The translations under genes were made by a program, and so were the position numbers. A stretch of DNA of 64,000 nucleotides, taken from positions 1,810 through 65,809 of IMG/VR virus record IMGVR_UViG_3300044971_003100; one strand, written 5' to 3'. Positions 1,791-2,183 of this stretch are shown in pieces. This stretch comes from a virus. Its lineage: Duplodnaviria > Caudoviricetes. Each line of letters opens with the position of its first letter. Position 1 is the stretch's first letter. The notes below the pieces were generated by a model. That model saw nothing but the letters and a program-made list of their open reading frames with translations. It ran no database searches and was not told where the DNA came from.

Positions 1791-2183
1791 AGTGACAGAG
1801 GTTGGGCCACTGTCTGGTTACTTTTGTATCCGGTCACGCCCAATCCTTCTGTTAACCCCCCCACGCTGCTCTGTCGGCGGGGTGCAGTCAACAGGAATGG
1901 GCACTGCGTCGATTCTGGATCGGAAATTTTCGATCGTTGTTGACCTGCGTGAAGTCCTGGGTTTCCAGGCCGGAGGGTTGATCACCTCCGCCCGTCTAGT
2001 CCACGGTTGAGCCCTCAACCCATTTGGCAAGCTCGACGGACTGCATACGGTTGACCAACCGTCCCGGACCCGGCAGGGCCCCTTAGGGAGAAGGTGCCCC
2101 TACGGATCGCAGGTTAGATCCGTTCAAACACCCTCTATGCTTAGCTCCAGGACGCTGGATGATGCACAAACAGGAGGGTCACT
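1791..2183 (+). ncRNA. putative large, highly structured ncRNA (~390 nt) of unknown class
   Basis: Closing helix AGTGAC(1791)/GTCACT(2178); nested GGGCAC(1899)/GTGCCC(2094) and GTCGA(1908)/TCGAC(2033); about 8 local hairpins; possible pseudoknot GACCTGC(1942)/GCAGGTT(2109); no credible ORF. Confidence 0.65.

Follow-up and report, generated by a model that had tools for sequence, protein, structure and literature searches.

The RNA and Its Locus

The stretch of DNA analyzed here (the window, 64,000 nucleotides long; positions 1,810 to 65,809 of IMG/VR record IMGVR_UViG_3300044971_003100, a virus of the Caudoviricetes) covers nearly the whole of a 65.8-kb viral contig with a completeness of 93%. 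Its genes are those of a tailed phage and include portal, terminase, primase, helicase, ribonucleotide reductase, and tail fiber genes; the stretch is also present in lake-water DNA runs. Near the left end, a phosphoesterase gene of family phrog_547 (1246–1773) ends upstream of a structured RNA on the + strand (1794–2183). The RNA follows an extended −10 promoter element, read from the sequence (1779–1787, + strand, with its hexamer at 1782–1787), and adjoins a degenerate tRNA-like element (2184–2249, + strand), after which comes tRNA-Arg (2262–2338, + strand), the first canonical tRNA of a cluster. No long open reading frame (ORF) lies between the phosphoesterase stop at 1773 and position ~2745. 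Fold statistics, homologues, covariation, and RNA-library contigs establish that 1794–2183 is a real, discrete, conserved structured RNA. By sequence and fold its last ~50 nucleotides (2130–2179) are a variant of the abiF RNA motif, and the ~340 nucleotides upstream of that module constitute a well-supported structured family that matches no Rfam family.

Relatives were gathered by two routes. The first proceeded through the neighboring phosphoesterase, where 359 relatives led to 80 loci that were kept; in the second, two conserved DNA patterns were scanned over viral contigs and one of them over metagenome contigs as well. With nhmmer the RNA was located in 27 distinct contigs of the first two locus sets and in 27 further metagenome locus rows. 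Four copies were dropped because no 3′ end could be recognized in the extracted stretch, leaving 45 core copies, equal to 35 distinct sequences, in the alignment designated A3. Conservation of the RNA at 1794–2183 extends to at least 35 distinct sequences of viral and metagenome contigs. The stretch itself folds well: the minimum free energy (MFE) of 1791–2183 reaches −165.4 kcal/mol, whereas shuffles average −142.6 (z = −3.73), and none of 100 shuffles is as good. Relatives, denoted here by L numbers, vary in length. The stretch from a conserved junction to the 3′ end spans 138–313 nucleotides, and in some relatives just the ~48-nucleotide 3′ module stands behind the promoter.

The 3′ Module and the abiF Motif

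The 3′ module (2127–2183, + strand) comprises an outer helix Hx (2130–2136/2173–2179), an inner helix Hy (2138–2140/2164–2166), an inserted hairpin Hz (2146–2150/2155–2159), a conserved unpaired bulge (2167–2172), and an unpaired 4-nucleotide tail (2180–2183). Covariation supports all three helices among the 35 sequences: three pairs of Hx, one of Hy, and all five of Hz have changed on both sides. The MFE structure of this piece folded alone is the same. A short conserved ORF within 2137–2217 was considered and rejected, since insertions of differing length occur there in relatives.

The relation to abiF RNA (Rfam RF03085) is clearest in the relatives. When ten of their loci were scanned, RF03085 hits that coincide exactly with the 3′ module exceeded the family's gathering score (37 bits) in L142 (55.7 bits), L078 (55.3), and L107 (46.6); the other seven loci have the loop hairpin and give no RF03085 match at the gathering score. 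Three cultured phages introduced below, S-CREM1, S-SZBM1, and S-SRM01, fall with these three relatives in the range 46.6–55.7 bits, and each of the five records searched contains exactly one match above gathering. In the window, cmscan over 2110–2260 aligns 2131–2179 to all 37 positions of the model at 16.5 bits, which is below gathering. The low score can be traced to 23 nucleotides, including the hairpin at 2146–2159, that stand where the model has an 11-nucleotide terminal loop, and the full-length alignment makes the 3′ module an abiF-type motif with an insertion. The consensus stems of RF03085 (an outer stem of 6 bp, a one-base bulge, and an inner stem of 3 bp) are formed in the window and equal Hx and Hy; the unpaired 3′-side stretch between the stems, also a trait of the family, is kept at 2167–2172 and is nearly invariant in A3. 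The phage RNA thus shares with abiF RNA its two nested stems, the conserved bulge on the 3′ side, and the closing base. It differs in its loop hairpin, in the ~340 nucleotides of other conserved structure ahead of the motif, and in its surroundings, for no abiF gene lies downstream and a tRNA or tRNA-like element follows after 4 nucleotides instead.

The motif also occurs in phages that can be grown. A blastn search of the core of one relative against 50,697 phage records detected the ~45-nucleotide module in three cultured Synechococcus myoviruses at 86–100% identity. In S-CREM1 it is annotated as abiF, lies between tRNA-Asn and tRNA-Gly, and ends 4 nucleotides before tRNA-Gly. This module is 95.6% identical to that of L142, and in its 4-nucleotide spacing and its place in a tRNA cluster it resembles the window RNA. 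In S-CREM1, however, the motif stands alone between its two tRNAs and lacks the large 5′ domain. The match in S-SZBM1 ends at the base preceding tRNA-Ala, and in S-SRM01 the module precedes tRNA-Arg in an unannotated stretch. That stretch (L209:1432–2354, MW015081.1 ~184008–184930) is ~900 nucleotides long and contains four tRNAs called by ARAGORN besides the abiF module; a separate module of the 5′-hairpin type described below (L209:1645–1700) abuts tRNA-Asn there, apart from the abiF module. The portions of the S-CREM1 paper available to us list abiF as an Rfam match and propose no antitoxin or counter-defense role. Our literature search found no description of the large RNA or of a phage abiF mimic, and the main text of the 2017 paper on 224 motifs does not contain the term abiF.

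Structure of the Upstream Domain

Structure was derived from A3 and then evaluated by pair counts against shuffles and against controls with slid partner strands. Over the core (1951–2183), 94.5% of 1385 cells are paired and 23 of the 41 pairs have changed on both sides; 0 of 500 shuffles reach these values, and the slid controls give 35–48%. The core begins with a conserved junction (1951–1955) and hairpin H1 (1956–1960/1965–1969), a segment (1951–1969, + strand) that is nearly invariant in the 35 sequences. H1 is 100% paired, with two of five pairs changed on both sides. Hairpin H2 follows (1971–1990, + strand; stem 1971–1976/1985–1990) and is 98.6% paired, four of its six pairs having changed on both sides.

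The loop of H2 contains a six-base palindrome (1979–1984). Ten of the 15 distinct versions of the loop hold a self-complementary stretch of at least six nucleotides, a share reached by 2 of 2000 shuffles, although the 15 loop sequences are related and the statistic is not a probability. Two loop positions change together within a subfamily (L117/L164, L154, L107/L183), and by eye no other column tracks them. The H2 loop is probably a kissing loop.

Beyond H2 lies an H-type pseudoknot with an inserted hairpin (1991–2042, + strand), formed by helices Ha (1992–1994/2004–2006), Hb (1998–2002/2038–2042), and Hc (2008–2012/2031–2035). Hb is 95.4% paired with four of five pairs changed on both sides, and Hc 96.6% with three of five; one Ha pair is formed in 35 of 35 sequences, as C-G in 23, A-U in 10, and G-C in 2. 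Between the pseudoknot and the 3′ module the window carries a lineage-specific insertion domain (2043–2126, + strand) with hairpins at 2047–2062, 2080–2088, and 2102–2123. Only the window, L002, L005, and L067 carry it in this form; the remaining 31 sequences of A3 lack it or have a different one.

The 5′ domain was evaluated on a separate alignment, A4, of 16 sequences. Here 94.5% of the cells are paired, 11 of 26 pairs have changed on both sides, and none of 500 shuffles reaches these values. The domain opens with a long hairpin (1794–1853, + strand), in which P3 (1801–1807/1838–1844) is flanked by the strands of P2 (1794–1800 and 1845–1853). P3 is 100% paired, with changes on both sides in six of its seven pairs; many relatives form P2 imperfectly. 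The hairpin alone folds at −28.3 kcal/mol (z = −5.44). A signal recognition particle-like motif seen in this hairpin in some relatives was taken as chance and is not conserved in the window. The next hairpin, H_A (1860–1883, + strand; stem 1860–1866/1877–1883), has a nearly invariant 10-nucleotide loop (1867–1876). Its stem occurs in ten different sequences among the relatives, and four of its seven pairs have changed on both sides. No helices of the 5′ domain are better supported than P3 and H_A.

The extreme 5′ end (1794–1800) has three candidate partners: the strand after P3, as in P2; a local strand; and the invariant loop of H_A. The local hairpin (1794–1800/1808–1814) was rejected: 82.1% of its cells are paired, none of its pairs has changed on both sides, it does no better than shuffles, and it conflicts sterically with P3. 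Complementarity to the H_A loop (1869–1875) is present in 98.2% of the A4 cells, also with no pair changed on both sides. A further helix, H_B (1883–1949, + strand; 1883–1893/1938–1949), bears a variable tip module with a hairpin (1918–1922/1931–1935) that is paired in 95.6% of cells, one of its five pairs having changed on both sides. By eye, the H_B strands keep their complementarity across relatives while the tip varies.

A reading made earlier from the sequence alone (the sequence-only reading) had proposed a fold for this RNA. The complementary segments that it named all lie, by hand count, where it placed them, and the covariation among homologues by which it proposed to judge the RNA was found, with many compensatory changes; the fold itself was right in part. 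Five of its helices hold: the pairings that begin at 1956/1965 (H1), 1971/1985 (H2), 2146/2155 (Hz), and 1802/1838 (P3), all with covariation, and the hairpin at 1918–1935. The pairing of a further hairpin, 2047–2062, is kept through changes in L005. Four others, among them both long-range helices and the pseudoknot, fail against the relatives. The long-range helix 1908/2033 would take the 3′ strand of Hc, and the hairpin 2005–2010/2015–2020 is paired in just 72.9% of cells and stands in competition with Ha and Hc. The second long-range helix, 1899/2094, has a C-A mismatch in L002 and L067; its 5′ half is kept in L142, L114, L161, L184, and L199, of which L142, L114, and L161 lack the partner in A3. 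The pseudoknot 2109–2115/1942–1948 would take the 3′ strand of H_B and is broken by a change in L005, and it is the pseudoknot at 1991–2042 that the relatives support instead. The closing stem 1791–1796/2178–2183, with which the sequence-only reading began the RNA at 1791, is complementary but doubtful, given a likely transcript start near 1794 and the other partners available to 1794–1800.

Promoter and tRNA Context

A −10-like hexamer stands 5–8 nucleotides ahead of the conserved 5′ motif in 23 of the 35 relatives, a count that is partly a product of the pattern filter used to obtain it. The conserved spacing from the −10 element suggests that transcription starts at ~1794. Contigs from RNA libraries (metatranscriptomes) fall inside 1807–2094 in four runs of three studies, and one contig of 291 nucleotides spans 1807–2094. 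Being assembled contigs, they hint at expression and show the presence of the RNA in the libraries rather than its ends, strand, or level; flanks that lack cover in these runs were given no weight.

The position of the module relative to tRNAs is regular. A T-loop-like motif occurs within 95 nucleotides downstream in 53 of 61 distinct copies of the 3′ module. An acceptor-stem score, under which 59 of the 61 copies have at least six of seven pairs, was not used, because a chance match is expected nearly always under the allowed offsets. In the window the adjoining element (2184–2249) has a 7-bp acceptor stem, a short D arm, an anticodon-like hairpin (2206–2222), and a weak T arm. It was called as a tRNA neither by ARAGORN nor by the Rfam tRNA model at E ≤ 10 (over 2110–2260); it folds with z = −3.84, and its MFE structure retains the acceptor stem and the anticodon-like hairpin only. 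Its counterparts in L004, L082, L142, L113, L006, and L079 are tRNA-Met or tRNA-Ile according to ARAGORN. The small anticodon-like hairpin, located in the downstream tRNA-like element in the window, is found instead at the tip of P3 in L122, L134, L163, L067, and L096, and so behaves like a movable module.

Other tRNA-like elements accompany the RNA. In the window a second one, ~100 nucleotides long (2338–2437), comes right after tRNA-Arg; its acceptor and T arms are present, with a long extra arm where a normal anticodon arm would be, and neither ARAGORN nor Rfam calls it. Elements resembling it follow the RNA in L122, L096, L163, L117, and L107. L122, L134, L136, L107, L153, L163, and others have, after the RNA, a second tRNA-like type with a conserved loop of six or seven bases at the anticodon position, which ARAGORN reports as an undetermined tRNA with a two-base anticodon or as tRNA-Cys or tRNA-Leu.

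The broader claims of the sequence-only reading can be judged at this point. Homologues and covariation confirm that a discrete RNA, both conserved and pseudoknotted, heads the phage tRNA cluster, and its statement that the RNA ends exactly where a tRNA-like element begins agrees with the T-loop-like motif found after most copies. The promoter that it placed just upstream corresponds to a conserved extended −10 element; a consensus scan made no call at 1779–1787, which is explained by the absence of a −35 hexamer. Its suggestion of a new class applies to the ~340-nucleotide upstream domain but not to the 3′ module, which is of the abiF type. An Rfam check over 1791–2183 gave nothing at gathering scores or at E ≤ 10, and the models of GOLLD and ROOL, the large phage RNAs to which the reading had compared this one, have no match at gathering score or at E ≤ 10 over 1600–4000. 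The likeness to GOLLD and ROOL is therefore one of setting only.

Neighboring Genes and Other Features

The phosphoesterase gene might be thought a partner of the RNA. It lies within ~900 nucleotides of the module in 26 of the 80 loci found through the phosphoesterase itself, and among loci found through the RNA (not de-duplicated) it is present in 19 of 53 and missing from 34, some of which are 8–14 kb long. A functional tie was rejected on account of this loose linkage.

Farther along the cluster are two more tRNAs, at 3656 and 3751, identified by both ARAGORN and Rfam; the Rfam tRNA model gives tRNA-Arg, also an ARAGORN call, 63.8 bits. Between the tRNA-like elements and these tRNAs lies an ORF of 140 amino acids (2745–3167) with weak matches to helix-turn-helix and HNH-endonuclease-like sequences, which may be a free-standing homing endonuclease. 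The ribonucleotide reductase ORF (14702–18100, − strand; 1132 amino acids) has a PHROG family match split into two stretches, which could reflect an insertion, for instance an intein.

A glutamine riboswitch aptamer (RF01739, 51.3 bits) is found at 6073–6137 of the window (− strand), and a Glutamine-II aptamer (RF01704, 35.4 bits) in the relative L142 (2935–2988, −). Glutamine aptamers are typical of cyanobacteria and their phages, and their presence is in keeping with Synechococcus as the host of the cultured phages in which the abiF module also occurs. Genome contigs were also considered as a guide to the host. Of 12 pattern matches, two are true members of the family, on contigs of metagenome-assembled genomes labeled Rubrivivax and Bacteroidetes; no host was drawn from them, since they are possibly phage contigs binned with those genomes.

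A Possible Antitoxin Mimic

The bacterial counterpart of the motif has a known partner. In the available text of Saunier et al., the Clostridioides (C.) difficile RNA RCd22, which contains two abiF motifs, neutralizes the toxic protein AbiF in cis as well as in trans by binding it directly, in type III antitoxin fashion; in the case studied no tRNA lies downstream of the motif. Reviews, as far as their available text goes, describe AbiF, a HEPN RNase, as dimeric and as ancestral to Cas13; in the AbiFr ribonucleoprotein one RNA is bound per monomer, and nucleotides of the bulge block the active site.

The phages considered here have an abiF-type RNA and no AbiF gene. A search for Abi_2 (PF07751) found no match in 11 motif-bearing phage records, namely the window genome, seven IMG/VR relatives, and the three cultured Synechococcus phages; completeness is rated at 100% for five of the IMG/VR records and at 93% for that of the window. 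This combination suggests that the RNA of the 3′ module may be an orphan antitoxin mimic directed against an AbiF-type toxin of the host, a reading whose chances we regard as about even. An extended −10 promoter of its own would drive the RNA, and the tRNA-cluster transcript would yield it as its first product. Because the motif ends 4 nucleotides ahead of a tRNA or tRNA-like element, cleavage by RNase P at that element would release the RNA with a defined 3′ end, and such a release is plausible. Early and abundant synthesis together with the phage tRNAs could then keep an AbiF-like toxin neutralized once the labile antitoxin of the host has been depleted. The phage RNA has one motif per molecule where RCd22 has two; pairing of two molecules through the self-complementary H2 loop might present two abiF motifs to a dimeric toxin, as RCd22 does in one chain. 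Dimer formation through this loop, a role for the accessory domain, and binding of host AbiF are all presumed in this scheme. A precedent for its logic is the phage pseudo-ToxI RNA, an antitoxin mimic that reportedly allows escape from the type III system ToxIN, as experiments are said to have shown. Like pseudo-ToxI, the present RNA would be a phage copy of a host antitoxin RNA unaccompanied by the toxin. The two differ in toxin family, RNA fold, and repeat organization, and the role that rests on experiment for pseudo-ToxI is here deduced.

Several considerations weigh against a mimic. The window motif scores below the Rfam gathering score (16.5 vs 37 bits), and a loop hairpin is inserted in 26 of the 35 aligned copies, the plain 11-nucleotide loop being present in nine; that such a variant binds AbiF is presumed. 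An AbiF or Abi_2 gene in the host is likewise presumed, and the available text of Saunier et al. places Abi_2 mainly in Bacillota and Pseudomonadota and contains no word beginning with "cyanobacter." The large accessory domain of ~340 nucleotides, gained or retained by the window lineage, is neither required nor accounted for by mimicry. The strict position before tRNAs could instead mean a tRNA-related role. The H2 palindrome statistic describes 15 related loops, and the libraries that gave the RNA contigs may have suffered DNA carry-over, with neither ends nor strand visible.

Alternative Interpretations

In an extension of the mimic idea that we think unlikely, the RNA would be a multivalent counter-defense decoy produced by the machinery of tRNA maturation. 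The molecule freed by RNase P and dimerized through H2 would place two abiF motifs at the active sites of a dimeric AbiF-type HEPN toxin of the host. The other shuffled modules (the anticodon-like hairpin, the 5′ hairpin, the H_A loop, and the pseudoknot) would serve as decoys or binding sites for further RNA-binding defense proteins, for example nucleases that cut anticodon loops. If this were true, phage tRNA islands would double as RNA anti-defense islands.

Also unlikely is the proposal that the RNA is not one integrated fold but a chain of independent small modules (5′ hairpin, H_A, H1/H2, pseudoknot, anticodon-like hairpin, and abiF motif), each acting or released alone, with the window lineage merely lacking tRNAs between them. 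The modules are indeed shuffled among relatives, at times split by tRNAs, which is why the RNA may be a chain of semi-independent elements. L094 has H1/H2, a 5′-hairpin type, and the abiF module in that order, without the pseudoknot; L107 and L097 lack most of the 5′ modules; and L078 consists of the abiF module and a tRNA-like element only. The separate 5′-hairpin-type module of S-SRM01 and the two locations of the anticodon-like hairpin point the same way. In the window, however, no tRNA or known processing site lies between modules, a single RNA-library contig covers 1807–2094, and the Ha/Hb/Hc pseudoknot together with the complementarity of the 5′ end to the H_A loop suggests a higher-order fold. 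A chain of modules would in any case be compatible with an abiF-mimic function of the 3′ module.

It is rather improbable that the RNA is a self-assembling ornate RNA of the ROOL/GOLLD type, forming a multimeric RNA-only particle, and that its resemblance to abiF is incidental or structural. According to the portions available of the work on those RNAs, they too occur in phages or prophages, often near tRNA islands, and have many helices, pseudoknots, and kissing loops; GOLLD, too, is conserved toward its 3′ end and variable toward its 5′ end, and inter-chain kissing loops are used by ROOL, GOLLD, and OLE. The self-complementarity of the H2 loop, kept through changed sequences, would suit such an assembly. 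Yet there is no sequence or structure match to GOLLD or ROOL, and the OLE and raiA models likewise give none at E ≤ 10. At 393 nucleotides, with cores of just 145–160 nucleotides in relatives, the RNA is much smaller than ROOL or GOLLD and small for a cage. Its 3′ module, moreover, belongs to a family with a known protein partner and in relatives scores far above the abiF gathering score, which is hard to call incidental.

A purely cis-acting leader of the tRNA operon, which would protect the untranslated transcript (for example from 5′ decay or Rho termination) or guide its processing and have no role in trans, seems less probable again. Such a leader would account for the position directly 5′ of a tRNA or tRNA-like element, both in 53 of the 61 copies and in the cultured phages, for the conserved 4-nucleotide tail before the tRNA, and for the minimal relatives directly behind a promoter. 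It accords poorly with S-CREM1 and S-SZBM1, where the motif lies inside the array after other tRNAs and not at its head, with the presence of the RNA body in RNA-library contigs, and with the antitoxin function that the same RNA motif has in bacteria, the case described in the available text of Saunier et al. having no tRNA after it.

There is little to recommend the idea that the RNA is the antitoxin half of a toxin–antitoxin or exclusion system borne by the phage itself, with a toxin outside the Abi_2 family. AbiF systems are known on phages, for instance on a C. difficile prophage in the available text of Saunier et al., and the phosphoesterase is close to the module in a third or so of the loci found through it (26 of 80). 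Nonetheless no record of the 11 has an Abi_2 match, and no protein partner is constant: 34 of 53 loci (not de-duplicated) lack the phosphoesterase.

A divergent catalytic RNA, whether akin to RNase P or a ribozyme that cleaves itself to free the 5′ end of the tRNA, is scarcely credible: identities as an RNase P-like or tmRNA-like (transfer-messenger RNA-like) molecule, a group I intron, or a small self-cleaving ribozyme were considered for the conserved junctions, the pseudoknot, and the location exactly at a tRNA 5′ end, and two conserved stretches presumably bear a loose resemblance to core motifs of RNase P, but no model of these classes matches at E ≤ 10, ARAGORN reports no tmRNA, the covarying helices misfit those folds (the 3′-strand helix Hx is local rather than the long-range P4-type pairing that RNase P needs), and the smallest relatives measure ~48 nucleotides.

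Implications

If the 3′ module is indeed an antitoxin mimic, it would be a natural RNA inhibitor of a HEPN defense nuclease, conserved over unrelated cyanophage lineages and wired into tRNA processing. AbiF is of wider interest as a proposed toxin–antitoxin ancestor of Cas13, and its RNA antitoxin, in the literature available, has been characterized only recently. The accessory domain of ~340 nucleotides, through its size and variety, is suited to structural work. Cultured systems exist for a direct test, with S-CREM1 or S-SZBM1 on Synechococcus CB0101. Mimicry of a host antitoxin would supply a new reason for the presence of non-tRNA RNAs in the tRNA islands of phages.

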